From: an uncultured Actinomycetes bacterium
GTDB lineage: Bacteria; Actinomycetota; Thermoleophilia; UBA2241
Direction of reading: 5' to 3'
DNA length: 64,000 nucleotides
NCBI GenBank assembly: GCA_963767005.1
Contig: CAVYCN010000002.1
Coordinates: 625,028-689,027, forward strand
Position numbers and translations under genes: made by a program. The notes beneath the pieces were generated by a model, which did no database searches, was not told the DNA's origin, and worked only from the letters and a program-made list of their open reading frames with translations. Positions 14,443 to 55,805 of the stretch are shown in pieces. The number at the start of each line of letters is the position of its first letter. Position 1 is the stretch's first letter.

Positions 14443-14820
14443 TCAGTCGACGTCGGGCAGGAGCTCGGCCCGGCCCGTCTCGGGCGGCGCGCCGACCACG
14501 AGGACGACGAGCTCGGCGTCGGCCTCGTTGCGGATCTGCTGGCCGGTGTCGGTGCCGACCACGGCCACGCCGCCGCGCGGCAGCACGGCGCGCTCGGGCG
14601 GGTCGCCGAGCAGGAGCGTCGCGGTGCCCTCGAGGACGACGAACATCTCCTCCTGGGCATGCTCGACGTGACGCGTGCCACGCGTGCCGGGCGGCAGGTG
14701 CCAGATGTTCGCCCGCATGCCGGCCAGGTCGTCGGACAGGGGCGTGAGGCGGCGACGCTGGTCGCCGCGCTTGGGCGACTGCAGCTCGCACGCGCCCGGC
14801 AGAAAGACCCTGAAGCTCAT
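14443..14820 (-). CDS. cupin domain protein
   Basis: HVEHAQEEMFVVLEG cupin motif. Confidence 0.8.
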   Translation of the reverse strand: MSFRVFLPGACELQSPKRGDQRRRLTPLSDDLAGMRANIWHLPPGTRGTRHVEHAQEEMFVVLEGTATLLLGDPPERAVLPRGGVAVVGTDTGQQIRNEADAELVVLVVGAPPETGRAELLPDVD

Positions 14821-14850
14821 GTCGGCAGGCTAGCCGACGGCCGCCGGGCG

Positions 14851-14864
14851 GTCAACAGGAGCCC
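14851..14864. repeat. left target-site duplication of casposon (GTCAACAGGAGCCC)
   Basis: Identical 14-mer at 29321-29334, each directly outside a TIR. Confidence 0.95.
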
Positions 14865-15245
14865 GGGATAGGGGATAGGGACGCGAGAAATGTCCGGTTG
14901 CGTGACATCGGCCAAAGATCGACACTGCCGCGAGGGTGCCGGCGACGGCTCTCCTGCCCGCTCGCCGCGCTGCGCGCGGCTCGCTAACCCCACCGGAGCG
15001 ACGGCTCCCGGCGAGGGCCGAGGCCGGATTTCGGACTCCATGCCCGGTGCGCCGTCGCGCCATGGGCCGGCTCACTACTCCCCAATCCCAACCCAGCACC
15101 GTGCACGCTGGCAGCGCTCAGAATCCGTTGCCCTTGTGGGTCCTGGCACGGGCGTTGGATCGTCGCGGGCGGGCTCAGGGACCGTCAGACGTGGTCAGGG
15201 TTACGAGCGACGGGTGACAAGTCACGGGCTCGCCGCCGCTTCGCG
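14865..15245 (+). repeat. left terminal inverted repeat (381 bp), starts GGGATAGGGGATAGGGAC
   Basis: Reverse complement of 28940-29320 with one C/T mismatch seen near 14920. Confidence 0.95.
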
Positions 15246-15350
15246 CGGCTCGGCGAAAGGGCGACGAGCGAGGCGTGCGGCTGGGGCGAGGGTGGTCGAG
15301 GCGCGAGTCGACGGTCCGGCGCGTCGCGTCGTCGCGGGTGGCGCGGTGGG

Positions 15351-16427
15351 TCAGGGCTCGCCCCCGCTTGCTGTGGTGAGCACAAGGCGTCCGCCGGCGA
15401 CGCAGCCGTCCTTGGCATCAAGGAAGGCGACCGCTCGAAAGTCGCTGCCGGCCGGACCGCGGACCTGTTCGTGCCAGGTCGCACCACCGTCGTCGGTCGC
15501 CACGACGATGCCGGCCATCGTGTGTCCGGTGGCGACGTCTCCGGCCACCCAGCCGTGCAGCGAGTCCGCAAAGGAGACAGCCCACAGGAAGCCGGGCATC
15601 CCCGCGGTGTCCTGCAGCTTCCAGGTGGCGCCACCGTCTGTGGTATGCAGGACGGCGATCTTCTGGGAGAACGGCGGTAGGTTCTGCATGACGGTACCGA
15701 CGACCCAGCCGCTGCGCTCGGTCGTGAACGTCGCCGCGTTGAGAATGAGCCAGCAGCCCTTGGCCACCCGAGGCAGTGTCTGTCGATGCCAGGTGACGCC
15801 GCCGTCCGTGGTCGCCTCGATAGAGCCTTGGCCGACTCCCCAGCCGTCCTCAGAGGTGACGAAGTCGATAGCCGTCGTGTCATGTGCGCCGAGACTCCTC
15901 CAACGTTTGCCGCCGTCGGTCGTGACGGCGAGGTCACCCGCTGCGAGAAGCCAGCCGTGCCGGGCATCGACGAAGCTCACGTCGGACAGGCCGTTAAAGG
16001 GGGGCTGCTGGACCTGCCAGTGACTGCCGCCGTCGGTCGTGGCCAGAATGACGTGCCAACCACCCACCACCCAGCCGTGCTTGGCGTCGACGAAGTCGAT
16101 CGCATCCATGGGATCGGACGTGGGCACGTCTCGTTTGTCCCAGCTACGGCCGCCGTCGGTCGTCGAAAAGACGCAGCCACCGTCACCCGAACCGACAGCC
16201 CAGCCGTCCTTGGCACTGGTGAAGGCAAGGCCGCGGATGTCGGCGTGCAGGCCGATCGCATGCCAAGCGCCATCACCGGCCAGGGCGACCGGCGAACTGT
16301 GCATCTTGGCCTGCCCGCAGCTGCACAGCAGGGCGGCCAGGACAAGGGTCATGACAGCCACGAGGATGCCGCTGGAAGCGAGAGTGGCACGACTACTCAA
16401 GTGAGACGGTGACCTTCTGCGCGCCAC
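15351..16427 (-). CDS. YCF48/BNR-repeat beta-propeller lipoprotein, copy 1
   Basis: LAALLCSC lipobox-like; repeated TTDGG.W and F.D..HGW motifs; start inferred from GGAGG RBS. Confidence 0.85.
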   Translation of the reverse strand: MARRRSPSHLSSRATLASSGILVAVMTLVLAALLCSCGQAKMHSSPVALAGDGAWHAIGLHADIRGLAFTSAKDGWAVGSGDGGCVFSTTDGGRSWDKRDVPTSDPMDAIDFVDAKHGWVVGGWHVILATTDGGSHWQVQQPPFNGLSDVSFVDARHGWLLAAGDLAVTTDGGKRWRSLGAHDTTAIDFVTSEDGWGVGQGSIEATTDGGVTWHRQTLPRVAKGCWLILNAATFTTERSGWVVGTVMQNLPPFSQKIAVLHTTDGGATWKLQDTAGMPGFLWAVSFADSLHGWVAGDVATGHTMAGIVVATDDGGATWHEQVRGPAGSDFRAVAFLDAKDGCVAGGRLVLTTASGGEP

Positions 16428-16692
16428 GGGCTCCAGTCCTCCGACGAATGGCTTCGTGGGGTATTTCGTCAGGCGTGGCCGCAGCCTTGAGACTAGCTGA
16501 CGGGTAGACCAACACCCACAGATGCTTAGTGAGCCGCGATGACCCGAATTGCCATGGCCTGTCGCTTCAGTTCGCCGCGCTTCGCGGCTTGCCGAACGGC
16601 CGTCGGGCGATGCGGGCGGGGGGAGGGGCGAAGGCAGCCGGGTCGCGAGCGACGAGTCCGGAGCGTCGCATCGTCGCGGGTGACGCAGTGGG

Positions 16693-17796
16693 TCAGGACT
16701 TGCCCCCGCTTGCCGTGGTGAGCACGAGCTGGCCGCCGGCGACGCAGCCATGTCGAGCATCAGAAAAGGCAACCGCCTTGAAGTCGTTGCCGGCCGGACC
16801 GCGGACCTGTTCGTGCCAGGTCATGCCGCCGTCGTCGGTCGCCAACACGACGCCAGCGGTCTTGCCATTGTCAGCGACGATCCCGACCGCCCAGCCGTGC
16901 ACTGGATCGGCAAAGGAGACAGCCGAGAGGGAGCCACGGAGCCTTGGTGTGTCCTCCAGTCTCCAGTTGGCACCACCGTCAGTGGTATGCAGCACCGCGA
17001 GCCTCTCGGGAATCGGAAACACGTTGGGCTCAACCATCGCGCCAACGACCCAGCCGGACCGACGCGTCGTGAACGCGACCGTGGAAAGGTCGAGGACCCA
17101 CCCTCTTGGTACCCGGGGCAGCGTCTGGCGGTGCCAGCTGGCACCGGCGTCTGTAGTGGCCTGGATGTTGCCGTCAGCGACGCCCCAGCCGTCCTCGGAG
17201 CCGACGAAGTCAATCGCCCAGACGCCGTCAGTCGTGAACAGGTGTCGTCGGTTCCAGGTGGCGCCGCCATCGGTCGTTGCCAGCAGGATGCCGCTGCCGG
17301 TGAGGATCCACCCGTGTCGAGCGTCGCCGAGGCTCACGTCGCTCAGGCCGTTGACCGGACTGTGCTGTACCTCCCAGTGCGCCCCGCCGTCGCTTGTCGC
17401 CAGGATAAGGTCGCCACCGACGATCCAGCCGTGCCTTGCGTCGGCGAAGTCGATCGACTCCAGATCGTCGCCCAGCCCTATCCCGGGGTGCGGCACGCTC
17501 CGTCTGAGCCAACTACGGCCGCCGTCAGTGGTCGCAAACACCCATCCGCCATCGCCGACGCCCACGGCCCAGCCATCATCGGTACCGTTGAAGGCTAGGT
17601 CGCGGATGTTCGCGCGCAGGTCGGTCGCCTGCCAGGCGGCATCACCGGCCAGGGCGACCGGCGAACTGTGCATCGTGGCCTGCCCGCAGCTGCACAGCAG
17701 GGCGGCCAGAACAAGGGTCAAGCCAGCCACAAGGACGCCGCTGGAAGCGAGAGTGGCACGACTACTCAAGTGAGGCGTTGACCTTCTGCGCGCCAC
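16693..17796 (-). CDS. YCF48/BNR-repeat beta-propeller lipoprotein, copy 2
   Basis: Paralogue of copy 1 with near-identical leader, signal peptide and C-terminus. Confidence 0.85.
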   Translation of the reverse strand: MARRRSTPHLSSRATLASSGVLVAGLTLVLAALLCSCGQATMHSSPVALAGDAAWQATDLRANIRDLAFNGTDDGWAVGVGDGGWVFATTDGGRSWLRRSVPHPGIGLGDDLESIDFADARHGWIVGGDLILATSDGGAHWEVQHSPVNGLSDVSLGDARHGWILTGSGILLATTDGGATWNRRHLFTTDGVWAIDFVGSEDGWGVADGNIQATTDAGASWHRQTLPRVPRGWVLDLSTVAFTTRRSGWVVGAMVEPNVFPIPERLAVLHTTDGGANWRLEDTPRLRGSLSAVSFADPVHGWAVGIVADNGKTAGVVLATDDGGMTWHEQVRGPAGNDFKAVAFSDARHGCVAGGQLVLTTASGGKS

Positions 17797-18148
17797 GGGC
17801 TCCAGTCCTCCGACGAATGGCTTCGTGTGGTATGTCGTCAGGCGTGGCCGCAGCCTTGAGGCTAGCCGACGGGTAGACAAACACCCCCCCGGAACCTAGT
17901 GAGCCGCGATGACCCTAATTGCCATGGCCCTTTCGCTTCAGTTCGCCGCGCTTCGCGCGGCTCACCGAACGGCTGTCAGGCGACGGGTGCGGGCGGAGGG
18001 GCAACGACAGCCGGGGCGGGACCGACTGTGAGAGTGCAGCGGGGCCGCGGGGCCGGCGGGCCGCCGCGCCCATTCTCGACCCCCCAACAGGTGCTACGAT
18101 TGCCGCAGGTGGATGGGCGCTCAAGACGCCGCCGAGAGGATGCGACAC

Positions 18149-19069
18149 GTGGTCACGAAACGGGTCTCAGCCGTCGCCGTGCAGTCTCTGAAGGAAGCTC
18201 TGGCCAGCATCTTCTGGTACAAGCGGGACCTGCGGGGCTTCATCTCCAACTGCGTCAGCGATCCGCGACTCTTGGCGGTGGCGGATTGGGGCGGATACAA
18301 ACACCAGATTGTCTCGGACATCATCGACTATCTATGCGCTCACCAGCCGCAGTCTTCCGATGACCTCGCCGTCCTGTTCGACGAGGTGGCTGAGTTCGAT
18401 TCCTTTCGACACCTTGAACAGCTCGACGACGGGGCTGCGAAGGTGGCGAAGGCAAGACAGGCCGTCGCAGACCTTCGCAAGATCGTTCGGGCTCACGGCC
18501 AATTGACGGCAGAGGCAAGAGCCATCGAGGCGCGACGCAAGACGGCTGCCAGCAAGCGCGAGAAGAACGAGTCTTTCAAAAGCGCTCTCGACAAGCTGCG
18601 GGGGGATTACCTCAAGATGCTCGCCGCCGATTCCCCGCAACAGCGCGGGTTCGACTTGGAACAGCTGCTGTATGCGGTCTTCGCGTTGTTCGATCTGGAC
18701 CCGAAGGCGTCTTTCCGCATCACCGGAGCACAAATGGACGGGGCCTTCAGCTTTGACGGAACCGAGTTTCTGCTGGAGGCAAAATGGGAGTCGGGGCCGG
18801 TCGACGGTAGTGCGCTGGATAGGCTGGCCTCCAAGGTGAAGCGTCAACTCGACAACACCCTGGGGCTGTTTCTCTCCATCAATGGTTTCTCGGCGGACGG
18901 AGTTGCTGACCATTGTCGAAGCCGCCCGGTGCTCATCCTGATGACGGGGGCTGACCTCATGGCTGTGCTCGACGGCAGGATAGACCTGGTGAGCCTCCTG
19001 CTTCGAAAACGTCAGCACGCTTCGCGGACGGGTCGAATACTCATCACCGTGCAGGAGATTCTGGACTAA
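18149..19069 (+). CDS. Mrr-like PD-(D/E)xK restriction endonuclease
   Basis: RGFDLEQLL...QMDGAF...LLEAKW...LFLSINGF; start uncertain (18113, 18140 or 18149). Confidence 0.8.
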   Translation: MVTKRVSAVAVQSLKEALASIFWYKRDLRGFISNCVSDPRLLAVADWGGYKHQIVSDIIDYLCAHQPQSSDDLAVLFDEVAEFDSFRHLEQLDDGAAKVAKARQAVADLRKIVRAHGQLTAEARAIEARRKTAASKREKNESFKSALDKLRGDYLKMLAADSPQQRGFDLEQLLYAVFALFDLDPKASFRITGAQMDGAFSFDGTEFLLEAKWESGPVDGSALDRLASKVKRQLDNTLGLFLSINGFSADGVADHCRSRPVLILMTGADLMAVLDGRIDLVSLLLRKRQHASRTGRILITVQEILD

Positions 19070-22000
19070 TCCCGGCTCGCCTGGCTCTTTGCCGACATAA
19101 TGCACTACAGAACGTCGCTCGCACCTTCACGGCTCCGCCGCAGACGGGACAAATCCGAGTCCGCTTGCCCAGCTCCCCAACATAGGCGCGCAGCGCCGCC
19201 ATGTCGCCGCGCGGAACCTCCAACCCGGCGGCCGCGAGCCGCGCTCGCGCCTCTTGCGTCGCAAGCGCCGTGAGCGCGGCGCGGTTCTCCGGTTGCGGTA
19301 GCGATTCACCCTTGAGGTTGCGCCGCAGTGTGCGCACGTCCACGTCCGCTGCTGCGGCAATTGCGCTCTGGCGCAGGGTCCTGAGCACGGGAACCACCAA
19401 CCGCACAAACGGATCGTTGCTCGGGTCGACATACTCGTTCATGACCTCGTCTTCGTCTTCGATAAGACCGTGCTGTACCTCTTTGAGGCGGTTGGTCTCC
19501 TTACCCACGTAGATGACGCGTAGCGCTTCGACTGGCCTGCGCCGCAACACTCCGACGGTTGTCTGCGAGCACGGCTGTCCACCTGGCGCGAGACTCTTGA
19601 ATTCGCGATGACAGCGGTATTCGGCGACCACATCGGCATAGGTCTTCACCCGGGCGACCCCGGGCGCGAGCGCGTCGCCTGTAGTCACGCGGTACGCCTT
19701 GCCGCTGTAGCGGTCCGTGTAGCGCAGCTTCAGCCATTGGCTCGGGTCGGCGTTGTACGGAGCGATGAGATGGAAGGGCTTGAGCGGGTCAATGCCGGGC
19801 GGGTGACCGAGCGGGGCAACTTGTGCCGAGAGCAGGAAGTTCTGGGGCTTGACCTGCGCGGCGTAGGGTCGACCCTTGTTTAGAGCCGCAAACAACGTCA
19901 GCGTGCGGGGGTCGTTAATGCCGACGCGACCGAGCGCGGGACGCGTAAACCAAGAGGGCGCTTGCGGCAATTCCCCGAGCACGTCGGCCGCGATGATGTA
20001 GTGCCATATCTCTTCGATCCAATCGTGCTCGCGTGAGTCGGGATCGCTCGGGTTGAGCAGGTGCCCCAAGCCGTGTCGTGAGTACTTGCGGATGACGGGG
20101 CGACCGTCGGCGTCCAAGTTGTACATGACATACCGCTTGGCGCTAATCGCGTAGCAGTACAGCTCGCGCTGCTCGCCGGTGACCTTGTCGAAGTTCTCGT
20201 CTTCGGCCTTCAGGACAGACCCGGACACGGCGTCGGGTTCATACGGATTGAGCGCCGCGAAGCGTTGGCGAACCTCTTCGACCTCCGCCCAGCTCAGGGC
20301 CTTGACGGCTTCACGTCCATCGCACAGGCGGTGCCGCCCGCCCGGACAGGCCAGCAGACCGCCGTCTTCGTTGCCGACTATCGCCAGCGAGTCGGTATCG
20401 CAGAACACATACGATCCGCCGCGCTCGCGCACGCTGCATTCAAGCAACGCCAGCATGAGGCGAGCGGCTGAGGTAATCAGGGCGGCCAGTGGCGGGAAGC
20501 AGAACGGGCCGGGCTTTTCGGGAGCCGCCACCTTGGTTGTAAACGGCTGCCCGTCGCTGTTCCAGGCGGTCACCTTGGCCTTGCGGTTGCCCGGCTGTTC
20601 CTTGCGGTTCATCTCCGCGAAGATGCCGTAGCTGCCGGCGTTGGCCGTCACCTTGAGCGCCTTCTGCAGGCGCTCGCGTTCGGTCGAATCGAGGGCCTGG
20701 TTGCGTTGCGTGCGCTTGCGTTCCTCGATAACCACCTTAAAGAAATCCTGCGCGCGCGGGTCGACCGGCACAGCGCCACGCAGCTTGGTCGGCCGCATGC
20801 CCTCTTGCTGTCCTTGCGCTTCGAGACAGAAGGCTTCCACCACCTGCGGTGTCTTGCCGGTCAGGAACTTGGCGGCGACCACGTCGGGCAGGGCAAACCA
20901 GACGGCGTTGTCACTTCTCAGGGGATTGGAGCCTATCTGCCAGCTTGGGCCGTGGGGGTCGTACTTCACGCGCACGGGGAAGGTGTCGTCCTGCGGTCTG
21001 ACCTTGACGAACGCCGCAAGCCGTGGCCACGTCTCGCGGCAAAAGCAATCCTCAAGGGTCACCGTGTCGAGGAACTCGGCGACCTCTCGCGTCGCCTCGA
21101 CGGCACGAATCTCGCCAGCGGTAAGCATGGCCCAGTTGCCGAGCAGGGCGTTGACCGTCGGATACATCGAAACGAAGTCCGTGTAGACGACCGGCAACGC
21201 CACCCGGCGAATGCGACATTCGGCCCGCCCGCCATAGAAGGCGTTCATCGCCGAGCCGAGCCTGTGGCGCGGGAAGTCGGGCTGGCGGGCAAGCACCGCG
21301 TCGAGGCGCATCGCCTTCTGATAGGACTTGGCAAGCGAGGCCGGCGAGAACGCCTTGGTCACCTGCAGCGGGATCGGGTGGCGCTCGAACTCCTCTAGCA
21401 GCTTCACGAGTAGCTCAGCCGTCGCCTTCACGTCGCGGCGGTTGTAGTCGACGTACTCGGGCGTGATCTTGCCGTGTTCTTCGGCTTGCTGCTTGGGGTG
21501 CTCGACGCCGAAATCCTCGCAGGCTTTGGCGAGCGTGTAGCTGCGGTCGGAGAGCGCGAAGGCCAGCGTGCGCAGGTCGAGGAAATGTCCCGAGAACGCG
21601 CTGCGGCGCTCCTTGCCGTCGTCGTCTTGCCAAGTCTCGTAATCTTCCGGGTCACCGACGCGGCGGTCGGTGAAGCGGAAGAGATGTTCCTTGGAGTTGA
21701 GACTCTTGATAATCAGCAATGGGCGATTGACGTCGGGCCGCAGCACGCCGCTCTCTTTGTCGGGGAAGTCCCACAGAGTGAAGGAGAAGCCACCGCCGTA
21801 TGAACGCCGAGCGTCTTTGACCTCGACGGCCAACCGCGACAGATCGAATGGCAGGTTGAATCCGACGACCAACGCCTGTGCCTTGTAGGCCGCCCGCCAG
21901 AACGGCCCCGTCACGTTCCGCTTCAGCCGTGGCTCGTAGCGCTTCACTACGAACTCGCGGCGTGAGTAGAGGTGTAGCGGCTTGCGGTAGCGCCGCACGT

Positions 22001-22310
22001 CGAGGTCGGCCTCATGGGCGGCGACATACTCCCGAAGGACGGCGAGCCCTTCGGGGTAGCGCTCGGGCAGCTCGTCGGCGTAGAAGATGCCCTCTTCAAG
22101 ACAACTGCCGGGCGCGTGCTTGCCGTAGGCAAGGGCGATGAACCGGTACGAGCCGAAGTTGAGCGCCTGCGTGGCATCGGTCGTGGTCTCGGTATCGATG
22201 ACCAGGGCGAACTTGGGCGGCGTGATGAGCGTCGGTTTGTTACGGTCGGGCGCATGGGCGGAGTCCGTGGACTCCGCCCATGCGCGTAGCGCTATCGTCT
22301 CGTGACTCAA
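19044..22310 (-). CDS. polB: family B DNA polymerase with C-terminal HTH and Zn finger (casposon PolB)
   Basis: Exo motifs IDTETT, GFNLPFD, YNRRDV; pol motifs YGGRAE, DFVSMYPT, KVTANAGSYG, CDTDS, KRY; TTG start overlaps the upstream TGA. Confidence 0.93.
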   Translation of the reverse strand: MSHETIALRAWAESTDSAHAPDRNKPTLITPPKFALVIDTETTTDATQALNFGSYRFIALAYGKHAPGSCLEEGIFYADELPERYPEGLAVLREYVAAHEADLDVRRYRKPLHLYSRREFVVKRYEPRLKRNVTGPFWRAAYKAQALVVGFNLPFDLSRLAVEVKDARRSYGGGFSFTLWDFPDKESGVLRPDVNRPLLIIKSLNSKEHLFRFTDRRVGDPEDYETWQDDDGKERRSAFSGHFLDLRTLAFALSDRSYTLAKACEDFGVEHPKQQAEEHGKITPEYVDYNRRDVKATAELLVKLLEEFERHPIPLQVTKAFSPASLAKSYQKAMRLDAVLARQPDFPRHRLGSAMNAFYGGRAECRIRRVALPVVYTDFVSMYPTVNALLGNWAMLTAGEIRAVEATREVAEFLDTVTLEDCFCRETWPRLAAFVKVRPQDDTFPVRVKYDPHGPSWQIGSNPLRSDNAVWFALPDVVAAKFLTGKTPQVVEAFCLEAQGQQEGMRPTKLRGAVPVDPRAQDFFKVVIEERKRTQRNQALDSTERERLQKALKVTANAGSYGIFAEMNRKEQPGNRKAKVTAWNSDGQPFTTKVAAPEKPGPFCFPPLAALITSAARLMLALLECSVRERGGSYVFCDTDSLAIVGNEDGGLLACPGGRHRLCDGREAVKALSWAEVEEVRQRFAALNPYEPDAVSGSVLKAEDENFDKVTGEQRELYCYAISAKRYVMYNLDADGRPVIRKYSRHGLGHLLNPSDPDSREHDWIEEIWHYIIAADVLGELPQAPSWFTRPALGRVGINDPRTLTLFAALNKGRPYAAQVKPQNFLLSAQVAPLGHPPGIDPLKPFHLIAPYNADPSQWLKLRYTDRYSGKAYRVTTGDALAPGVARVKTYADVVAEYRCHREFKSLAPGGQPCSQTTVGVLRRRPVEALRVIYVGKETNRLKEVQHGLIEDEDEVMNEYVDPSNDPFVRLVVPVLRTLRQSAIAAAADVDVRTLRRNLKGESLPQPENRAALTALATQEARARLAAAGLEVPRGDMAALRAYVGELGKRTRICPVCGGAVKVRATFCSALCRQRARRAGISPESPAR

Positions 22311-22729
22311 AGGGCGGCCTCCGGAAGCTCGCGCCACTCGGGGTACTCGCTGTCGAGCGAGGCGATGAACAGGCCAAGCAAGCCAGCGAGCCACACGAAG
22401 GTATCGGCAAGCTTGCGCAAAAGCGCAGCGGCGGCCACGAGAATCACGCTGGCGACGACCAACAGGATGCGCTTCGGCGGGTGGGTGAGGTCGACGCCCG
22501 CGTCGAGCATGTCGACGTGCAGCTTGCGATGACAGTTGCGGCAAAGCCAGACGGTCAGGTGGGGCAGGTTGCCAACGCCCGCGATGTGGTGATCTTCGAG
22601 CATCGTCTTGTCGACCTCGACAAAGCAGGCGGGGTCGTGCTCGCCACAGAACGGGCAGGCCGTGCCGGGCGGCACCTTGCGCTCGCGTTTGGCCGCTCTC
22701 GCGGCCTCGCCGATGGGATCGTCACTCAT
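22307..22729 (-). CDS. HNH-like zinc-binding protein
   Basis: CPFC...EDHHIAG...LCRNCHRKLH; hydrophobic C-terminal segment. Confidence 0.8.
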   Translation of the reverse strand: MSDDPIGEAARAAKRERKVPPGTACPFCGEHDPACFVEVDKTMLEDHHIAGVGNLPHLTVWLCRNCHRKLHVDMLDAGVDLTHPPKRILLVVASVILVAAAALLRKLADTFVWLAGLLGLFIASLDSEYPEWRELPEAAL

Positions 22730-22741
22730 GACTTCATCGCC

Positions 22742-23353
22742 TCATTTCTCGTAGGGTTCGTACTCAAGCTCGCCGCTGCGTTCCAGGTCCTCCAGGACCT
22801 CCGGGCGCGTCTCAAGCTCGCGGCCGCCGACCTTGACCCCGGCGAACTTGCGCAGCGGCTCGGCGTCGCCGGTCAGCAGGAACTTCTTGATGGCATTGGC
22901 GTGCTCGCCAACCAAGGTAGCCTGGCGCGAGCTGCGCAGGGACACCTCGACCACGCCCTCGGTCGTGACCGCGTTCATCACGCGGTAGAGGCGGTCGGAG
23001 CGGCTGGCCACCGTGCGGCCGCCCTCGCGACGCAACTGCTCGCCTGCGTACTTGGCGACGGTGTTCGGCGTCGTTCCGGCCTGCTGTGCGGCACGGGTCA
23101 ACGTCTCGCCGTGGCGAACCTTCGAGAGGGCGTCCAGGGCGCGGGCGCGAGCCTGCTTCTGCGAGGCGCGTAGCGAGCCATAGCCCTTCGCCGTTACCTT
23201 CTCGGCTGCCCTCTGCTGCCCGTGCCAGCTCGCAAAGCCCTGACGTTGGGCGAGGGCGTTGCGGTACTCGCGCTCCGTGTAGAAGGTCCGGTCCTTGAAG
23301 GCTCCGGAGCGCGGCGTGTAGGGCCGCGCCTTGGTGATGGGGGGTCGTGCCAT
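22742..23353 (-). CDS. basic HTH DNA-binding protein
   Basis: GETLTRAAQQAGTTPNTVAKY helix-turn-helix; AAGGAAGG RBS. Confidence 0.7.
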   Translation of the reverse strand: MARPPITKARPYTPRSGAFKDRTFYTEREYRNALAQRQGFASWHGQQRAAEKVTAKGYGSLRASQKQARARALDALSKVRHGETLTRAAQQAGTTPNTVAKYAGEQLRREGGRTVASRSDRLYRVMNAVTTEGVVEVSLRSSRQATLVGEHANAIKKFLLTGDAEPLRKFAGVKVGGRELETRPEVLEDLERSGELEYEPYEK

Positions 23354-23447
23354 GGCACCTTCCTTTGATCGTCGCGGCCACCTGCCGCGTTGATCCGGAA
23401 GGGTAGAGAGCGTGGCTCGCGCTGTGGCGAAGTTTCGCGCGGAGTTG

Positions 23448-23453
23448 TAGAAT
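23448..23453 (+). promoter_or_regulatory. -10 element TAGAAT, likely leaderless transcript for the gene at 23460
   Basis: TAGAAT ends 6 nt before ATG 23460; no clear RBS. Confidence 0.4.
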
Positions 23454-23459
23454 CACAGA

Positions 23460-24617
23460 ATGCCACGGCGTCTGTCGACAGCCTCATATCGCGAGCTGCG
23501 CAAGGAAGTCGACGAGCTGCTTTGGCCGCAGGAGAAACCACCCTCGATGACTCAGCTCGAACGCTGGCGGGGTGGTGGCTACATTCCGCGCACCGAACGT
23601 CACGGGCAGGGTCAGCGGCGCGGCATGTGGTCGCGTTACCCGCCGCAGACAGCCGAGCAGGTGGTCGCCCTACTGCGCGAGTTGCCGCGCAGTCACTCAC
23701 TCGACAGGGCCGCGTTGCGCCTGTTCTATCAGGGCTACTGGATTCGCAACGATGTGCTGCAGCGCGCCATTCTTGCCGAGATGACGCGCGTGCGCGTTCA
23801 AATGGAGATGTACGCCGGGACGCGACGCAGCACACGGCAGCCAAGTCCCGACCCCGAGCTAACCGCCACACGGCTTGCCCATCGGCTGGCGAGCGGCAGA
23901 CTGAGTGAGGAAACGCGGCGACAGACGGACCTCATGCTCGCCCACCTGGGCAAGGCGCTGCGTTGGGTTCGCGAAGACGCACCGCAGGACAACCTTGAGA
24001 CCGTCTATGCGAGCCTCTTCCATCTCTTCCTCAGTGGCGACCTGCTGCCCGGATCGGAGGATGTGCCCTATCAGGCGTGGGTCGCCTACGGCGGCGAGGC
24101 GGCGCTCGCCGGCACGCTCTCTGCCAAGACGGCCGTGGCCGTGGCGCAGCAAGTGGAGAGCGACGAGGTCGTTCGCGAGGTGCTCTGGCGTCTCAGCCTG
24201 CCCGGCCTTACCAAGACGGTGCAGGAGATGGAGACCGCCGACTTCGAACGCGCGCGCGACGACTGCGCCATGGTCGTCGACCTCGTGCTGTTTATCCTGC
24301 GAGTTCTGCTCGCCGCGCTTCCGCCCGACCTTGTTGCGCAACTGCCGTGGCGCGTGAGCAAGGGAGTCGACTGGAAGCTCGTGGCGAGTGTGGCCGCGCT
24401 GCCGCTGGTGTTCGATGTGCGCCGCAAGGAGGCAGACACCTTCGACGCCTTTCTCGCCATCGCACGCGAGCACCTGCCGCAGTGGCGAGAGCGCTTCGAG
24501 GCGGCCTTGCGAGCGGAGGTCTTCGACGACGAAGAGAAGCGTGATGCGATCCGCGCTGAGACGATTGCGGGCGCTCAGGGGGCGCTCGCGGCAGGCAAGC
24601 CAATCGTAGACGTTTGA
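23460..24617 (+). CDS. hypothetical protein with N-terminal MerR/excisionase-like HTH
   Basis: TQLERWRGGGYIPR...SRYP pattern; first gene of the cas1 transcription unit. Confidence 0.6.
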   Translation: MPRRLSTASYRELRKEVDELLWPQEKPPSMTQLERWRGGGYIPRTERHGQGQRRGMWSRYPPQTAEQVVALLRELPRSHSLDRAALRLFYQGYWIRNDVLQRAILAEMTRVRVQMEMYAGTRRSTRQPSPDPELTATRLAHRLASGRLSEETRRQTDLMLAHLGKALRWVREDAPQDNLETVYASLFHLFLSGDLLPGSEDVPYQAWVAYGGEAALAGTLSAKTAVAVAQQVESDEVVREVLWRLSLPGLTKTVQEMETADFERARDDCAMVVDLVLFILRVLLAALPPDLVAQLPWRVSKGVDWKLVASVAALPLVFDVRRKEADTFDAFLAIAREHLPQWRERFEAALRAEVFDDEEKRDAIRAETIAGAQGALAAGKPIVDV

Positions 24618-24680
24618 CAAAGTGCCCCCGCGACCGTGCGACCGGTCCGGGGGCGTGGCACTCGGAAAGGTAGTTCCGAA

Positions 24681-26243
24681 ATGCAGAACTATGTTAGCGC
24701 AACCTTCCGAAGCCTCGACTGCGCGGGCGGCGTCTGCGTGGTCGACGGCTACGGCGTCCAAGTCAGAGTCCGCAGACGGTCTCTCGTCGTTTCCGATGGC
24801 ATCGGACGGTTTCGCAGAGAGCGCAGCTTCGCCAAGGCGCTCGTCGGAATCAAGCGGCTCGTGATACTCAGCCACGAGGGCGCAATTACCCTCGAAGCGC
24901 TGCGCTGGCTAACCGACGCGGGAATCGCTTTTCTGCAGATCGACCGCGACGGCGAGGTGATTGCCGCTTCCGCGAGTTACGGGCTCAGCGATCCGCGTCT
25001 GCGTCGTGCGCTGGCACTCGCGACGACAAATACCGCTGGCCTCGAAATCGCGCGATTTCTACTGCACGCGAAGATCGCAGGTCAGGAACGCAATCTGACG
25101 CGGCCGATATTCGCGAATAACGTCCGCGCTGAAGTATCCGATTGCCTGAATGTCGCCAAAAATGCGCGGTCAATTCCCGAGATACTGACGGCCGAGGCGC
25201 GGGGCGCTTTGGCGTATTGGGGAGCCTGGAAGGATGTTTCCCTGCGGTTCGCTCGTAAGGAGGAGAAATCAATTCCCGAGTACTGGCGGACATTCGGGCA
25301 GCGGCGCTCACCGATTACCGACTCACCGCGCCTGGCGGCGAATCCCGCGAACGCTACCCTCAATTACCTCTATGCCCTGCTTGAGGCGGAGTGCCGCTTC
25401 GCCTGCCTAGCGTGTGGGCTCGATCCGGGGCTCGGCGTGTTCCACGCAGACCAGAAATCGCGCGACTCGTTGGCACTCGATCTCATGGAGGCGGTGCGAC
25501 CGAAGGTCGACGCCTACCTGCTGGACTTGATCGAAGCGCGCACCTTCAGCTCCAAGGATTTCGTCGAGACGAGAAGGGGCGTCTGCCGCGTGCTTGCGCC
25601 GCTCACACACACGCTGGCAGAGACCGCGCCACGATGGGCGGAGGCGGTTGCACCGGTCGTCGAAAACGTCGCCGCGCTAGTCGTCTCAGGCGGCGAGCTT
25701 CAGTTGCGCCTTCCGACACCGCTCACACAGGCGAACCGCAGTGCCGGGCGCAACAGAGTGCGTCGCAACCCGACGAAGGCCAAGCCGGCGAGGGCCAAGC
25801 TCGCGACGACCTGCGCGAACTGTGGCGGTGCGCTGCCGAGCCCTGACCGCATGTTCTGCAACGACTGTCTGCCAGAGCACGAGAAAGAGAAGCTAGTCCT
25901 TTTCTGCGAGGCCGGATCGGTTGCGTTGGCGCGTCTCCGGGCGGAGGGTCGCGATCCGACCACAACCGACGATGCAAAGAAGAAACTCAGAGACGCGCAC
26001 TGTCGCCACGTCTCCGACGCTGCGCGCTGGGACGCCGAACACGAGCCTTGCGACAGGGCGGAGTTCATTGAGAAGATACTGCCCGGGCTTCAAGGTGTAC
26101 CGCTTTCAAGGATGATGGACGCGACCGGCCTGTCACTGCGCTACTGTTCGAAGATTCGACGGGGGCGCGTGCCGCACCCGATGCACTGGGACGCATTGCG
26201 ACTGTGCGAACGCGGCGCATCTGGTGCTGGCGTCGACGGATGA
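24681..26243 (+). CDS. cas1: Cas1 endonuclease (casposase) with C-terminal Zn finger and HTH
   Basis: ITLEALRWL, AEARGALAYW, NATLNYLY, GLDPGLGVFHAD, LALDLMEAVRP; CANC...CNDC; terminal HTH ending PHPMHW. Confidence 0.95.
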   Translation: MQNYVSATFRSLDCAGGVCVVDGYGVQVRVRRRSLVVSDGIGRFRRERSFAKALVGIKRLVILSHEGAITLEALRWLTDAGIAFLQIDRDGEVIAASASYGLSDPRLRRALALATTNTAGLEIARFLLHAKIAGQERNLTRPIFANNVRAEVSDCLNVAKNARSIPEILTAEARGALAYWGAWKDVSLRFARKEEKSIPEYWRTFGQRRSPITDSPRLAANPANATLNYLYALLEAECRFACLACGLDPGLGVFHADQKSRDSLALDLMEAVRPKVDAYLLDLIEARTFSSKDFVETRRGVCRVLAPLTHTLAETAPRWAEAVAPVVENVAALVVSGGELQLRLPTPLTQANRSAGRNRVRRNPTKAKPARAKLATTCANCGGALPSPDRMFCNDCLPEHEKEKLVLFCEAGSVALARLRAEGRDPTTTDDAKKKLRDAHCRHVSDAARWDAEHEPCDRAEFIEKILPGLQGVPLSRMMDATGLSLRYCSKIRRGRVPHPMHWDALRLCERGASGAGVDG

Positions 26244-26268
26244 GGCTGGTGCGGAATAGACTCGCTCG

Positions 26269-26997
26269 GTGTTCACAAAGGAACACATTCTAGCTGAGAT
26301 TCAGCGCACCGCCGGAGCGAACGGCGGCCGACCGCTCGGTCGCGCGCGGTTTGAGGCCGAGACCGGAGTTCGCGAAGGTGACTGGCTCGGTCGCTACTGG
26401 ACGAAGTGGGGGGACGCGCTCTCAGAGGCAGGCTTTGCGCCAAACACCTTGAACGCGGCCATCCCAACTGTTGACCTGATCGAAAGGCTCGCGCGGCTGG
26501 CTCGCGAAGTCGGGCACTTCCCGACAGACGCGGAGTTGAAGATGAAGCATGGACTCGACCCATCCTTCCCGAGTTCCAACACGTTCTGGCGGCTTGGGTC
26601 GAAGCGCCAACGCGCACAGGCGGTTCTAGAGTTCTGCGAACGCTCGGGCAACCTCGACGACGTTGCCGCCCTGTGCCAACAGCTCACCGACGGCGAGCCG
26701 ATGGCCCACTCCGACCCCGCCCTGCGCGATGAAGCCGGGCCGAAGGGCTTTGTCTACCTGATGAAGTCCGGAAGGTACTACAAGATAGGTCGCAGCGTCT
26801 GCGCCGAGAAGCGCGCGCGCGAGGTACAGCTTGTGCTTCCCGAGGAATTGAGGCTCGTTCACAAGATAGCGACAGATGATCCAGTCGGCATCGAGGCCTA
26901 CTGGCATTCGCGGTTTGCCGCCAAGCGGAAGATGGGCGAGTGGTTCGACCTGAGAGCCGACGATGTGGCGGCTTTCAAACGCAGGAAGTTTATGTAG
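26269..26997 (+). CDS. GIY-YIG (T5orf172/MUG113-like) protein with N-terminal homing-endonuclease-type repeats
   Basis: GFVYLMKSGRYYKIGRS...EAYWH..F...GEWF. Confidence 0.8.
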   Translation: MFTKEHILAEIQRTAGANGGRPLGRARFEAETGVREGDWLGRYWTKWGDALSEAGFAPNTLNAAIPTVDLIERLARLAREVGHFPTDAELKMKHGLDPSFPSSNTFWRLGSKRQRAQAVLEFCERSGNLDDVAALCQQLTDGEPMAHSDPALRDEAGPKGFVYLMKSGRYYKIGRSVCAEKRAREVQLVLPEELRLVHKIATDDPVGIEAYWHSRFAAKRKMGEWFDLRADDVAAFKRRKFM

Positions 26998-27088
26998 CCC
27001 ATTCGTCCTAGCCGATCCGGAGGAACTAGGTACGTCGTCGCACCAAGTAGAAGCGAACCGGCCAGCCAGTTGCCGAGTTACCCTCAGC

Positions 27089-28114
27089 ATGCTCACCTTG
27101 GTTGTGTTATCAGTGCTCGTGGCCGGATGCGCGCCTGCAGCCACGACCACCGGAGCTGCGCGCAGCTTGGGCTGGATCGCACAACAGTCTGGCACCGGAA
27201 ATGGCCTCATGGGCGTCTGCTTCACCAGTGCCAACGATGGCTGGGCCACTGGAGAGGCCGGCATGCTGCTTGCCACCTCAGACGGCGGTGCCCATTGGCA
27301 AACGGTCGACTGTGGCACTTGGGAGGACCTCTTCGATGTCACCTTCACGGACAGATCGCACGGCTGGCTACTCGGCAACGACGAGGTGATACGCACCTCG
27401 GATGGTGGCAAGCACTGGTCGGTCGTGAGGCTCGCCCCGCCAAACGCGGGTCTGGCCTTGGCGGCGCTTGCGTTCACCGACCGTCTCCATGGTGCTGCGA
27501 CAGGGGTAATCGCACGCGGCAACCACCAGGTGGGCGTCATCTTCTACACGTCCGACGGTGGCGCACATTGGCGCACGGCGTGGAAGCAGAGCCCGACATT
27601 TCGCTTCACCAAGTATGAACGGTTCCTGCAACATGCGGCCGGTGTCACGAGCGAAACAGTCGGACTGGGTGAGATTGCCGTTGTCGATCGTCAGCACCTC
27701 GTGGTCACAGACGGCGGAGGCATCTGGTTGGCCAGCCGGGACGGAGGCGCAAGCTGGTATCTCCTTGCGAACAGCGAGTTCGCTGACGGCCTGCGCTCGC
27801 CGGTGTTCCCAACCCCATCTCAAGGATGGGCGGTCACAGCACGAGGCGGGATAGTGGAGAGCAACGACGGGGGCCGCACGTGGCAGCTTCGCCAGACCGT
27901 TGGCCAGTACTCGCTGTACCAGATCGCCTTTGCCAGCAAGACGGTCGGATGGGTCGTTGGTGATGGCGGGCTGTTCCGAACGACAGACGGCGGCGCGCAT
28001 TGGACTGCCGTGCCTGGGCTTCTGCCGGCTTCGTCGCCGCAAGCGGAGGCGTTTGTGGGGCCGGACCACGGCTGGATCGTCGGCGATGGCGGAAGCATCT
28101 ACGCCTTCCGCTAG
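27089..28114 (+). CDS. YCF48/BNR-repeat beta-propeller lipoprotein, copy 3
   Basis: LVAGC lipobox; multiple TSDGG.HW repeats; start uncertain. Confidence 0.85.
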   Translation: MLTLVVLSVLVAGCAPAATTTGAARSLGWIAQQSGTGNGLMGVCFTSANDGWATGEAGMLLATSDGGAHWQTVDCGTWEDLFDVTFTDRSHGWLLGNDEVIRTSDGGKHWSVVRLAPPNAGLALAALAFTDRLHGAATGVIARGNHQVGVIFYTSDGGAHWRTAWKQSPTFRFTKYERFLQHAAGVTSETVGLGEIAVVDRQHLVVTDGGGIWLASRDGGASWYLLANSEFADGLRSPVFPTPSQGWAVTARGGIVESNDGGRTWQLRQTVGQYSLYQIAFASKTVGWVVGDGGLFRTTDGGAHWTAVPGLLPASSPQAEAFVGPDHGWIVGDGGSIYAFR

Positions 28115-28304
28115 TTCGGCTCCGCCCACAGCCGCCCCGGGCCGACCATGCTGGGGAGCCGGGCGGCGGCCCTGCACGCCCGTCGTCCTGACGACAACCG
28201 CCGGTGGGTAGGCGAGCCGGACGGACTCGGACAGGCGGAGTCTCGCGCATTCCTCGTGGTGCTCCTCACACTCGATAGGTAGGATCACCTCCAGGAGGCG
28301 GCCC

Positions 28305-28910
28305 ATGTTCGAGGCGCAATACGTCTTCAGCCCATCTGTCGCCCGTCGCGCCTTCGTGAGCGCACTGTGGCACGAGCACAGTTCCTTCGTCTGCGCGGTC
28401 GTCACTGCTCTCGGAGTTGCAGTTGTCGGCATGCGCTGGTCAGCAGTCCGCCTGCCATGCGTCTTTGTCGCAGGATTTGCGTGTTTTCCGTGCTTTGTGG
28501 CGGCGGTGGTGTTTCTTCGGGTAGGTCCCAACGCGAAGGAGCAAACGGGAACCGTCGAGCTTCGATTCACCGAGGAAATCTTGGAGTGCTCGGCTCCATG
28601 GGGGCACTCTTCAGTCCCGTGGTCCGCGCAGTCCGCCTCGTATCTGACTCGCGGCTTCGTCGTCTTCGTGAGATCCAACAAGAAGCAACTCTTCGTACCG
28701 CGCAAGGCCTTAGGTGTGGAGGCGCTGGCCTTTGTCCGAGAGAGACTGGACATCGCGAGGCTTCTTTCTGACGTCTCCCCCCCCGAGTTCGTAGCTCACC
28801 CGGCCACATCCCCACTTTCCGGCAAGCCCCATTCCCGACTCTACCCCCAGACGCCACCGGGCCGACCACACCGGGGATCCGGGCGGCGACCTCCACACTT
28901 ATCACCCTGA
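28305..28910 (+). CDS. membrane protein, YcxB-like
   Basis: Two TM helices then a ..W....FVPRKAL pattern; GGAGG RBS. Confidence 0.5.
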   Translation: MFEAQYVFSPSVARRAFVSALWHEHSSFVCAVVTALGVAVVGMRWSAVRLPCVFVAGFACFPCFVAAVVFLRVGPNAKEQTGTVELRFTEEILECSAPWGHSSVPWSAQSASYLTRGFVVFVRSNKKQLFVPRKALGVEALAFVRERLDIARLLSDVSPPEFVAHPATSPLSGKPHSRLYPQTPPGRPHRGSGRRPPHLSP

Positions 28911-28939
28911 CGGCGACTCCCGGCAGGTAGGCGAGCCGC

Positions 28940-29320
28940 CGCGAAGCGGCGGCGAGCCCGTGACTTGTCACCCGTCGCTCGTAACCCTGACCACGTCTGA
29001 CGGTCCCTGAGCCCGCCCGCGACGATCCAACGCCCGTGCCAGGACCCACAAGGGCAACGGATTCTGAGCGCTGCCAGCGTGCACGGTGCTGGGTTGGGAT
29101 TGGGGAGTAGTGAGCCGGCCCATGGCGCGACGGCGCACCGGGCATGGAGTCCGAAATCCGGCCTCGGCCCTCGCCGGGAGCCGTCGCTCCGGTGGGGTTA
29201 GCGAGCCGCGCGCAGCGCGGCGAGCGGGCAGGAGAGCCGTCGCCGGCACCCTCGCGGCAGTGTCAATCTTTGGCCGATGTCACGCAACCGGACATTTCTC
29301 GCGTCCCTATCCCCTATCCC
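28940..29320 (-). repeat. right terminal inverted repeat (381 bp)
   Basis: Ends ...GTCCCTATCCCCTATCCC; reverse complement of the left TIR. Confidence 0.95.
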
Positions 29321-29334
29321 GTCAACAGGAGCCC
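29321..29334. repeat. right target-site duplication (GTCAACAGGAGCCC)
   Basis: Identical to 14851-14864. Confidence 0.95.
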
Positions 29335-34748: not shown

Positions 34749-34914
34749 GCGCGCCTAGTCCCGTCAGGGGACTGCGTCGCTGCCGCTCAGGCGTGCGTGG
34801 CTGCGCTGCGCGCCTAGTCCCGTCAGGGGACTGCGTCGCTGCCGCTCAGGCGTGCGTGGCTGCGCTGCGCGCCTAGTCCCGTCAGGGGACTGCGTCGCTG
34901 CCGCTCAGGCGTGC
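34749..34914. repeat. 59-bp tandem repeat x2.8 with internal hairpin AGTCCC-GTCAG-GGGACT
   Basis: Identical units at 34749, 34808 and 34867 (partial); no spacers. Confidence 0.9.
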
Positions 34915-36785
34915 TATCCGAGGAGTCCTCGCGCCGCCGCGACCACGTCGGCGGCCGCGATGCCGGCCAGCTTCAGCAGCTCGGCCGGCTCCCCCGAGCC
35001 CGGCAGGTCGCGCACGGCCAGATGCCGCCAGGTGAACGGTTCGGCGGTCGCCGTCAGCGCCGCCACGACCGCCTCGCCGAGGCCGCCCTCGGCGTAGTGG
35101 TCCTCGACCACGACGAGCCGCCCGCCCGCCGCCCGGACACTCGCCGTCAGCGTCTCGCGGTCGATCGGCTTGATCGAGTAGAGATCGAGCACGCGGGCGC
35201 GCCGGCCCTCGCCGGCCAGCTCCTCGGCCGCCTGGAGGCACTCGTAGAGGGTGACACCCGCGCCGACCAGCAGGATATCGTCGTCCGGAGACTGGCGCAC
35301 GATCCTGGAGCCGCCGACGTGGAACTCCTCGTCGGGCGCATAGAGCACGGGATAGGCGCCGCGCGTCGTGCGCAGGTAGACGACGCCCTCGGTGTCGGCC
35401 ATCGCGGCCGTGAGCGCGACGGCAGAGGTGGCGTCGCTCGGATAGAGCACCGTCGAGCCGTGTACAGCGCGCATCATGGCGATGTCCTCGAGGCCCATCT
35501 GCGACGGTCCGTCAGCACCGATCTCGACTCCGGCGTGCGAGCCGCAGAGCCTGATGTCGGCCTGCGATATGGCCGCCATGCGGATGAAGTCGTAGGCGCG
35601 GGTCAGGAAGGCCGCGAAGGTGGCGGCGAAGGGCACGTACCCGAGCGCGCTCAGGCCGACCGCCGCGCCGATCATCTCCTGCTCGGCGATGAACGCCTCG
35701 AAGAAGCGCTCCGGGTAGGCCTCCTCGAACTCGCCGGTGAAGGTGGAGTTGCCGACCTCGCCGTCGAGCACGACCACCTCGGGGCGCGCCCCCAGCGCCA
35801 CGAGAGCGTCGCCGAAGGCCTTGCGCGTCGCGACCTTCTGTCCGAGGTCGTACCGCGGCAGCTCGACGGTGGCTCCTTCCCGCACACGCACCGCCACCCT
35901 GGGCCCGCGCGGGCGCGGCGGCGTGACCACCCGCAGGTCGCGCTCGCCGCCCAGCGCGCGCACGGCGTCCAGCGCCATCGTGGCCGGGAGCGGCTTGCCG
36001 TGCCAGCCCTCCTTGTCCTCGAGCTCGGGCACGCCCTTGCCTTTGATCGTGCGCGCCACGACGACGGTCGGTCTGTCGCCGCGCTCGGCCTGCGAGTAGG
36101 CGTCGTCGATCTCGTCGACGTCGTGGCCGTCGATCAGGCTCGCGCGACAGCCGAACGCCTCGACCCGGCGGCGATAGGCTTCGAGATCCCATTGCAGCTC
36201 CGTGGGCCGGCTCTGCCCGAGACGGTTGACGTCGAGGATGACGACCAGGTTGCCGAGGCCGTAGTAGGAGGCCTTGTCGAGGGCCTCCCACATGGAGCCC
36301 TCGGCCATCTCGCTGTCGCCGCAGAGCACCCAGACCCGATAGTCGACCTCGGCGAGTCGCTTGCCGGCGAGCGCCATGCCCACGCCCGCGGGCAGGCCCT
36401 GCCCGAGCGAGCCGGTGGCGACGTCGACCCAGGGGAGCGCGGGTGTGGGATGACCCTGCAGGCGCGAGCCGGCGCGACGGTAGCCGCTCATGAGCTCCTC
36501 GTCGGTGACGACACCGGCCGCCTTGAACAGCGAGTAGAGCAGGGGCGACGCATGCCCCTTCGAGAAGATCAGGCGGTCGTTGTCCGGCCGGCGGGGATCG
36601 TCCCAGTCGTAGTGCAGATGCCAGGCGAAGAGCGTCGCCATGAGGTCGGCGGCCGAGAGGGCCGAGGTCGGATGCCCGGAGCCGGCCGCCGTGCTCGAGC
36701 GGATGCTGTCGACGCGGAGCTGCCGCGCCAGCTCGTGCACGAAGGCCTCACTCGGCCTGATCTCCTCTTGCGGCAGCGCGCTCAT
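34914..36785 (-). CDS. tkt: transketolase (short, animal-like type)
   Basis: SGHPTS, SKGHA, LQGHP, GSLGQG, GDSEMAEG, GADGPSQM. Confidence 0.92.
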   Translation of the reverse strand: MSALPQEEIRPSEAFVHELARQLRVDSIRSSTAAGSGHPTSALSAADLMATLFAWHLHYDWDDPRRPDNDRLIFSKGHASPLLYSLFKAAGVVTDEELMSGYRRAGSRLQGHPTPALPWVDVATGSLGQGLPAGVGMALAGKRLAEVDYRVWVLCGDSEMAEGSMWEALDKASYYGLGNLVVILDVNRLGQSRPTELQWDLEAYRRRVEAFGCRASLIDGHDVDEIDDAYSQAERGDRPTVVVARTIKGKGVPELEDKEGWHGKPLPATMALDAVRALGGERDLRVVTPPRPRGPRVAVRVREGATVELPRYDLGQKVATRKAFGDALVALGARPEVVVLDGEVGNSTFTGEFEEAYPERFFEAFIAEQEMIGAAVGLSALGYVPFAATFAAFLTRAYDFIRMAAISQADIRLCGSHAGVEIGADGPSQMGLEDIAMMRAVHGSTVLYPSDATSAVALTAAMADTEGVVYLRTTRGAYPVLYAPDEEFHVGGSRIVRQSPDDDILLVGAGVTLYECLQAAEELAGEGRRARVLDLYSIKPIDRETLTASVRAAGGRLVVVEDHYAEGGLGEAVVAALTATAEPFTWRHLAVRDLPGSGEPAELLKLAGIAAADVVAAARGLLG

Positions 36786-52733: not shown

Positions 52734-53039
52734 ATGGCACGACGCCCACGCCGCAACCACTCGCCCGCCTTCAAGGCCAAGGTCGCCCTGGAGGCGATCA
52801 AGGGCGAGCAGCCGATCATCGAGATCGCCGAACGCTTCGACGTTCACCCCAACGTGATCACCAAGTGGAAGCGCCAACTCCTGGAGGGCGCTCCCGCGGT
52901 GTTCGGGGCCGCAGAGAGCGAGAAGGAACAGGCCCCCGACGTCGCCAAGCTGCACGCCAAGATCGGCGAGCTCACGATGGAGAACGATTTTTTGTCCGGG
53001 GCGCTCGGGCGCACAGACGGGCCGAGCGCAAGGCGATGA
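52734..53039 (+). CDS. IS3 transposase OrfA
   Basis: RRNHSPAFKAKVAL...IAERFDVHPN..KWK HTH. Confidence 0.92.
   Translation: MARRPRRNHSPAFKAKVALEAIKGEQPIIEIAERFDVHPNVITKWKRQLLEGAPAVFGAAESEKEQAPDVAKLHAKIGELTMENDFLSGALGRTDGPSARR

Positions 53040-54836: not shown

Positions 54837-55805
<969 letters not shown>

Follow-up and report, generated by a model that had tools for sequence, protein, structure and literature searches.

How does a mobile element that depends on a Cas1 enzyme settle on one particular place in a bacterial chromosome? This question is raised by a 64,000-nucleotide stretch of the genome of an uncultured Actinomycetes bacterium (Thermoleophilia, UBA2241; contig CAVYCN010000002.1, positions 625,028 to 689,027), here called the window, which contains a casposon of 14,456 bp from terminal inverted repeat (TIR) to TIR, at positions 14865-29320. 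Analysis of its flanks and of related elements revealed a promoter-register target rule, which is what is new here and which we are highly confident is real. The window element sits exactly on a predicted -35 box; that its casposase picks such sites by reading the promoter sequence directly is the explanation we favour, at slightly better than an even chance. Promoter targeting had escaped a preliminary description of the locus made from its sequence.

The insertion site comprises the following features.

14443-14820, minus strand: host cupin gene, outside the element (PF07883, E = 7.9e-11)
14827-14832, minus strand: predicted -10 box TAGCCT, kept as (T/C)AG(C/A)CT in 7 of 8 related loci
14850-14855, minus strand: predicted -35 box TTGACC, which overlaps the target site duplication (TSD) by five bases, its own first five and the final five of the TSD
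14851-14864, no strand: left TSD, promoter side, 14-bp repeat
14865-15245, plus strand: left TIR, starting GGGATAGG
28940-29320, minus strand: right TIR, 381 bp
29321-29334, no strand: right TSD, promoter-distal copy, 14-bp repeat

Read along the minus strand, the left junction has nine bases followed by TTGAC, a C, 17 bp, TAGCCT and 6 nt before the ATG of the cupin gene. The 14-bp TSD consists of the nine free bases and TTGAC; the -35 box's sixth base stays on one side of the element together with the 17-bp spacer and the -10 box. The site is intergenic, and the target is predicted to be a sigmaA-type promoter of a leaderless cupin gene, with the ATG 6 nt past the -10 box. The arrangement TTG(A/C)-17 bp-(T/C)AG(C/A)CT-6 nt-ATG is kept in seven of eight related cupin loci (two of the eight come from one genome's split match) with a diverged spacer; at the eighth, the gene directly follows another open reading frame (ORF). 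The site also fits the actinobacterial BTGACN/TANNNT consensus published for Streptomyces promoters (PMC8780764). A tRNA was considered as the target of the window element and rejected: the sole tRNA of the window lies 6.5 kb off, and Rfam gave nothing at the site.

The TIRs are 381 bp each with a single mismatch, at 14920, and the two copies of the TSD, GTCAACAGGAGCCC, are perfect and have no further exact copy in the 3.44-Mb genome; the TIR coordinates, the one mismatch and the perfect 14-bp direct repeat given in the preliminary description were all reproduced. The G+C content of the element is 65.2%, about 7 points lower than that of its flanks (72.2% and 72.6%). The description had also called the element young, which agrees with the near-perfect TIRs, the perfect TSD and the open core frames; judged by its sequence, this is a real, intact and probably recent casposon. 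Moreover, in a genome of the same genus (G226) the flanks are joined directly, and this empty site carries one diverged copy of the target, as was expected of relatives without the element, not two, and retains both promoter boxes. The chance that the locus is no casposon, and instead a composite or an artefact of assembly whose cas1 derives from CRISPR, is negligible. The junctions are spanned by no independent reads: a DNA run containing 6% of the sequence words gave neither joints nor a spanning read, and no RNA run was listed. This reading is contradicted, however, by the empty site in G226, by a second complete element in the host's own genome, by other genomes that have this gene order together with TIRs and 14-bp TSDs, and by the Cas1 tree and fold described below.

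The same pattern was found at three further sites in the host's own genome (G000): C8 has a complete casposon of 12.3 kb (Cas1 identity 69%), C7 a mini-element of 930 bp and C2 a single end. In each case TTGAC stands in the same register, and 17-18 bp further along comes TAGACT, CAGAAT or TAGCAT. In addition, the register was evaluated using a flank-blind search, in which only the first 14 TIR bases served as the query and which gave 24 matches in 89 genomes of the family and 9 in 24 genomes from a different order. At the exact register, TTGAC was present in 24 of the resulting 33 ends (7 of them from the host's own genome) and TTG(A/C)C in 30, against a background of 0.0014 per position. Of the three misses, one has TTGCG, one is a tandem junction displaced by 2 bp, and one has no -35 box. 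In a control sample of 351 genomes of the phylum with 19 matches, TTG(A/C)C was found in 1 and TTG(A/C/T)C in 3; two of these three belong to a paired element that precedes tRNA-Met, and chance seems to account for the remaining 16 matches. A stricter end pattern yielded zero new ends in 320 genomes.

A -10-like hexamer was present at a spacer of 17 or 18 bp in all 19 promoter-side flanks, 18 of which have strict TANNNT; the loose pattern was fixed after the data had been seen, and TANNNT and BTGACN are the published consensus. Grouped by hand via the downstream gene, the 19 flanks collapse to 11 promoters, those of the cupin gene, an Rrf2 gene, a flavin adenine dinucleotide oxidoreductase gene, a diaminopentanoate dehydrogenase operon (3 flanks), signal recognition particle (SRP) RNA, trpE, rpsT (3 flanks), a GH18 gene, rpmH-rnpA, a pyridoxal-phosphate enzyme with an S-adenosylmethionine (SAM) riboswitch (5 flanks) and a cyclase-like gene. 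The downstream features (leaderless ATGs, tRNA-Met, SRP RNA, SAM riboswitch, rpsT and rpmH-rnpA) begin at the expected transcript position. Furthermore, occupancy is patchy: the SRP, rpsT and rpmH promoters are unoccupied in the host's own genome and have both boxes. These figures bear on a simpler possibility, that Cas1 reads only a short TTGAC-like motif and that the link to promoters reflects the survival of harmless insertions. Visible insertions are indeed survivors only, and one end (L044) lies in a coding region. This possibility is nevertheless very improbable, because a loose -10 box at 17 or 18 bp accompanies 250 of 9,551 genomic TTG(A/C)C sites (2.6%) versus 19/19 occupied ones, many other intergenic TTGAC sites should be tolerated, and two sites retain the -10 box without TTGAC.

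A motif-blind finder, for which a TIR next to a repeat of 13-16 bp was enough, was run on 39 regions and resolved 13 elements, with ends unresolved in 26 regions and a few further matches judged spurious. TTGAC was present in seven of the 13 (two Chloroflexota genomes included), a -10 box only in one, and other targets in five. Three of these five have a short Cas1 of a separate clade and lie near a tRNA, a tmRNA or a gene 3' end. Because G231 and G018 each carry, besides a promoter-type element, one with a short Cas1 close to a tRNA, a tmRNA or the 3' end of a gene, the target is set by the element and not by the host. The gene order of the window element, with TIRs and 14-bp TSDs, recurs in other genomes; the promoter lies on the polB side in five elements and on the cas1 side in four (assigned by hand), indicating that either orientation is used, and tandem TSD-element-TSD stacks occur in G054, G734, G1001 and G231. 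By sequence comparison that included empty sites and outgroups from within the same hosts, the rule holds in both Actinomycetota and Chloroflexota.

Different TIR types were observed at the diaminopentanoate dehydrogenase promoter in G000:C2:206342 (L077), G226 (L088) and G146 (L078), and the SAM-riboswitch promoter is likewise occupied in five genomes, which suggests that both promoters are reused hot spots. The elements at G000:C7:6304-7233 and G226:C1:238122-248850 have two ends of differing TIR types, as expected from deletion between stacked elements, and one end type is common to both, at different sites. A 6.1-kb casposon remnant at G182:C10:209795-215898 has a different end sequence and a palindromic TSD.

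The core genes of the window element are polB, an HNH-like gene and a helix-turn-helix (HTH) gene on the minus strand; the plus strand then carries a gene for a 385-aa protein, followed by cas1.

19044-22310, minus strand: family B DNA polymerase, about 1088 aa (PF03175, E = 2.6e-7; phrog_1907, E = 4.5e-9)
22307-22729, minus strand: HNH-like protein, 140 aa, with a CxxC-HH-CxxCH motif by eye
22742-23353, minus strand: conserved HTH protein, 203 aa (weak RamA match, E = 0.016)
23460-24617, plus strand: conserved 385-aa protein upstream of cas1
24681-26243, plus strand: Cas1 casposase, 520 aa (PF01867, E = 4.9e-38)

The cas1, polB, HNH and HTH frames that had been described as open are all open, the HNH frame being HNH-like, by motif. 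The exonuclease and polymerase motifs of PolB are intact, with a CxxC cluster at the C-terminus, and its sequence gave no match in the PDB. The HNH-like and HTH proteins gave nothing above cut-off in the library family scans and were identified by motif and by homologues in related elements.

The catalytic-type residues of Cas1 (E172, H255, D267 and E270), matched by pattern to E141, H208, D218 and D221 of the E. coli enzyme, are invariant across 107 aligned homologues. They are followed by a tail of about 180 aa with a C4 zinc finger (378-396), an XRE-type HTH (about 455-515) and long helices. The structure model (predicted local distance difference test score 91.9) has the M. mazei casposase 6OPM as its top structural match (Foldseek E = 1.3e-17; Z 30.0, root-mean-square deviation 2.7 Å over 311 residues), versus Z 27.3 for A. 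fulgidus Cas1; in sequence profiles, the rank of these two swaps with the alignment used. A quick tree with 48 rows separated the 27 Cas1s of casposon type from the 21 of CRISPR type with a Shimodaira-Hasegawa-like approximate likelihood ratio (SH-aLRT) support of 100, so that the window Cas1 does not fall inside the CRISPR-associated clades; seven loci, one of them from an unpublished genome, were left out of this tree. Among the 21 CRISPR-type rows, an array was present in the locus for 18, and Cas2 in 7/7 downstream ORFs tested. All promoter-type Cas1s formed a single clade marked by the tail (SH-aLRT 99, quick tree). The subfamily includes at least 120 homologues at 47% identity or more and at least 150 clusters at 50% identity, mostly full-length matches; plasmid records gave three weak CRISPR Cas1 matches, and viral contigs one locus. 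At L185 (G765:C4:1349 onward), a short-clade Cas1 continues in one 804-aa frame into DNA-methylase-like sequence (by eye).

The absence of cas2 and of an array, also claimed previously, was borne out for cas2 in the whole genome (100% complete), which has no PF09827 match where a control matched in 6/14, and for the array in the window, which has no CRISPR-like repeat family or array. Both cas1 genes of the host genome lie within casposons. With its catalytic residues, PolB, TIRs, 14-bp TSD and a cas1 without cas2, the window element is virtually certain to be a casposon.

Read toward the element, the target consists of the -10 box, a gap and GTCAA, the first five TSD bases. Known casposase targets consist of an upstream motif and a motif at the TSD 5' end, with the second cut placed 14 bp off by a ruler (PMC6614799); the HTH of the M. 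mazei enzyme is essential and has been suggested as the reader of the upstream motif (PMC6977970). Because the layout of our target matches these, direct readout was favoured. A Cas1 tetramer, as in known casposases, would join both TIR 3' ends 14 bp apart. Its catalytic core would contact GTCAA, read from the promoter side, while contact with the -10 box, in the role of a 'leader' motif, would fall to the zinc-finger/XRE-HTH tail on a tether loose enough to accept 17 or 18 bp. Gap repair would restore the core promoter, so that expression of the gene would continue and the site could be used again, and sites more than 9 bp upstream of the -35 box would be displaced by the insertion. The excised element may be copied by PolB. 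More tentatively, and somewhat short of an even chance, we speculate that this multi-phylum Cas1 clade is a stand-alone promoter reader (core on -35, tail on -10) that finds a self-restoring safe site before almost any gene, and that its repeated use builds polarised TSD-element-TSD arrays, an analogue of leader and repeats with the promoter pointing away from the array.

Several observations weigh against the rule or against direct readout. A scan with the E. coli sigma-70 consensus gave 0 sites at the window junction. The ends come from related genomes, so binomial p-values overstate the significance, yet the 11 unrelated promoters have no common ancestry. G139 lies in a coding 3' end and G182 on a palindrome, though both are in the long-tail Cas1 clade; a single end (L044) lies inside an ATPase gene despite a full Cas1 tail, and the G734 site has only a weak -10 box. 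The HTH of the tail is XRE-like with low Z (4-6), not sigma-4-like; the idea that the tail mimics sigma region 4 found no support and was dropped, as its matches among the families listed were XRE-type. Direct readout, and the activity of the enzyme and of the promoter at this locus, are proposals drawn from sequence. Finally, L048 and L102 have no TTGAC and keep a -10 box at the same distance, a pattern explained at least as well by a polymerase-guided model.

In that model, host sigmaA RNA polymerase, or its open complex, recruits and positions the casposase, as proposed for the DDE transposases of TnGBS/ISLre2, which provide the precedent (PMC3942029). L048 and L102 are the best evidence for it, and it is also consistent with the occurrence of both 17- and 18-bp spacers and with the many targets that lie before housekeeping genes. 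However, the register tracks the -35 pentamer while the distance to the -10 box varies, and known casposases locate their targets unaided in vitro. The best argument against it is the cut within the -35 hexamer, compared with 15-17 bp upstream of -35 for TnGBS: with one cut there, a bound sigma would presumably be in the way. We consider guidance by the polymerase unlikely.

A separate selector comparable to TnsD of Tn7 could also bind the boxes and recruit Cas1. The 385-aa protein (or the 203-aa HTH protein) would be the candidate: its gene is conserved beside cas1, it is the most divergent core gene (46% identity to the C8 copy versus 61-69% for the others), and its N-terminus is MerR-like, a weak lead (score 0.80). 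However, elements located at a tmRNA or at gene 3' ends (G018:C24, G018:C13, G139) have homologues of the 385-aa protein too, and its strong divergence between two elements obeying the rule is not easily squared with one common DNA target, making such a selector improbable. Since non-promoter elements have homologues, the 385-aa protein was also dropped as a marker for promoter targeting. Direct readout by Cas1 remains our preferred explanation.

The passengers of the element are three YCF48/BNR proteins, one T5orf172-type nuclease and two ORFs without a family.

15351-16772, minus strand: YCF48/BNR-repeat protein 1 (PF14870, E = 1.2e-24), true start probably downstream of the ORF start
16693-17880, minus strand: YCF48/BNR-repeat protein 2, tandem duplicate of unit 1 (76% at the nucleotide level)
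18113-19069, plus strand: 318-aa ORF, restriction-nuclease-like by eye only
26269-26997, plus strand: homing-endonuclease-associated repeat and T5orf172/MUG113 nuclease domain
26963-28114, plus strand: YCF48/BNR-repeat protein 3 (PF14870, E = 1.2e-26)
28305-28910, plus strand: 201-aa ORF, probably membrane-bound, no family above cut-off

The 318-aa ORF has no Pfam, NCBIfam or PHROG family and only a marginal PADLOC match. No other recombinase or transposase was found among the 11 main element ORFs scanned. Several contigs of the host genome also carry numerous YCF48/BNR-repeat genes that match the three passengers in type. A sub-terminal motif of the window element, also seen near the ends of other elements, has internal copies at 15237, 16576, 17949, 28171-28220 and 28890-28960 that border passenger genes and could be traces of tandem duplication or of capture at the arms. 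These repeats were ruled out as attC sites: an attC scan gave five at a host integron and zero in the element, and the repeats, with folding z from -0.9 to +1.2, lack the canonical attC boxes with a stable hairpin. The integron, at G000:C12:167860-171983, has an integrase over the TIGR02249 cut-off and five canonical attC sites. Integrons are uncommon in Gram-positive lineages.

Elsewhere in the window, 51984-55820 is an IS3-family-like region with an ALIL pseudoknot (54852-54968), in which two inverted blocks (569 and 707 bp), nested and near-perfect, are arranged as A B A' B'; this reflects either inversion between nested IS copies or an assembly artefact. Three 59-nt repeats, two of them identical, lie head-to-tail in the intergenic stretch 34749-34925, and the segments 40432-41104 and 43242-43914 are duplicates with 74-81% identity, 2,810 bp apart.

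The degenerate two-box target makes the function of the C-terminal HTH in the casposase directly testable. It indicates that target choice by Cas1 can be retuned to a host-wide signal, a strategy that converges with that of ISLre2 transposases, and suggests a large-cargo integrase that leaves the adjacent gene unharmed.

The literature gives tRNA 3' ends, aEF-2 and unspecified intergenic sites as casposon targets, and no family 3 enzyme is among the characterised casposases in the accessible parts of these reports. No paper on promoter-targeting casposons was found in the literature searched, most subscription journals being outside its coverage, and the word 'promoter' is absent from a 2023 casposon review (PMC9939771). 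Family 1 Cas1s are compact and without extra domains, unlike the window Cas1 with its tail of about 180 aa. The family 2 casposases of A. boonei and M. mazei (PMC6614799, PMC6977970; 6OPM) share the 14-15-bp TSD, the TSD 5' plus upstream motif and a C-terminal HTH, include the closest fold to the window Cas1, and are known for tandem re-insertion; they differ in being archaeal and in targeting tRNA 3' ends or a few fixed sites, whereas the window-type Cas1 targets many unrelated promoters and its tail adds a zinc finger and long helices.

Family 3 was defined by Krupovic in 2014 with all four bacterial sites listed as intergenic (PMC4046053), and a 2016 paper by Krupovic agrees (PMC4779613). 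AceAut-C1 of Ca. 'Acetothermum autotrophicum' (PMC4046053) is also bacterial and has a Cas1 with C-terminal zinc-binding and HTH regions, PolB, HNH and HTH, as well as a long TIR (602 bp, starting GGGATAG). Its published 15-nt direct repeat ends in TTGACG on the other strand, and AceAut-C1 probably follows the same promoter rule. Compared by description only, it differs in that the available text of PMC4046053 gives the site as 'intergenic', leaves the TTGACG unremarked and states no promoter rule. NitAL212-C1, StrAlb-C1 and HenMar-C1 (family 3) are alike in bacterial host, intergenic site and core gene types, but differ in published direct repeats that, as printed, are without TTGAC and in other Cas1 domain layouts. 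The window element shares with family 3 the bacterial host, the intergenic site and the zinc-binding and HTH tail of Cas1 seen in AceAut-C1, and the motif, position and conservation of HNH and HTH beside polB agree with this, with no library match above cut-off. The nearest named relative of the host is a metagenome-assembled genome of Thermoleophilia, the class of Actinomycetota to which the host would thus probably belong. From its sequence, the casposon would work like those of families 2 and 3, and it fits family 3 by host, gene set and Cas1 tail.

A parallel in target choice is provided by TnGBS/ISLre2 (p-MULT3) and ISKra4 Mutator-like elements, which occupy a fixed position at many sigmaA promoters and, where their ends are symmetric, insert in both orientations (PMC3942029). 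ISLre2 p-MULT3 elements use a DDE transposase and insert 15-17 bp upstream of -35, whereas the window element has no Mutator-like DDE gene and its TSD overlaps the -35 box and contains the -35 pentamer. ISLre2 elements and the window casposon are convergent, not related.

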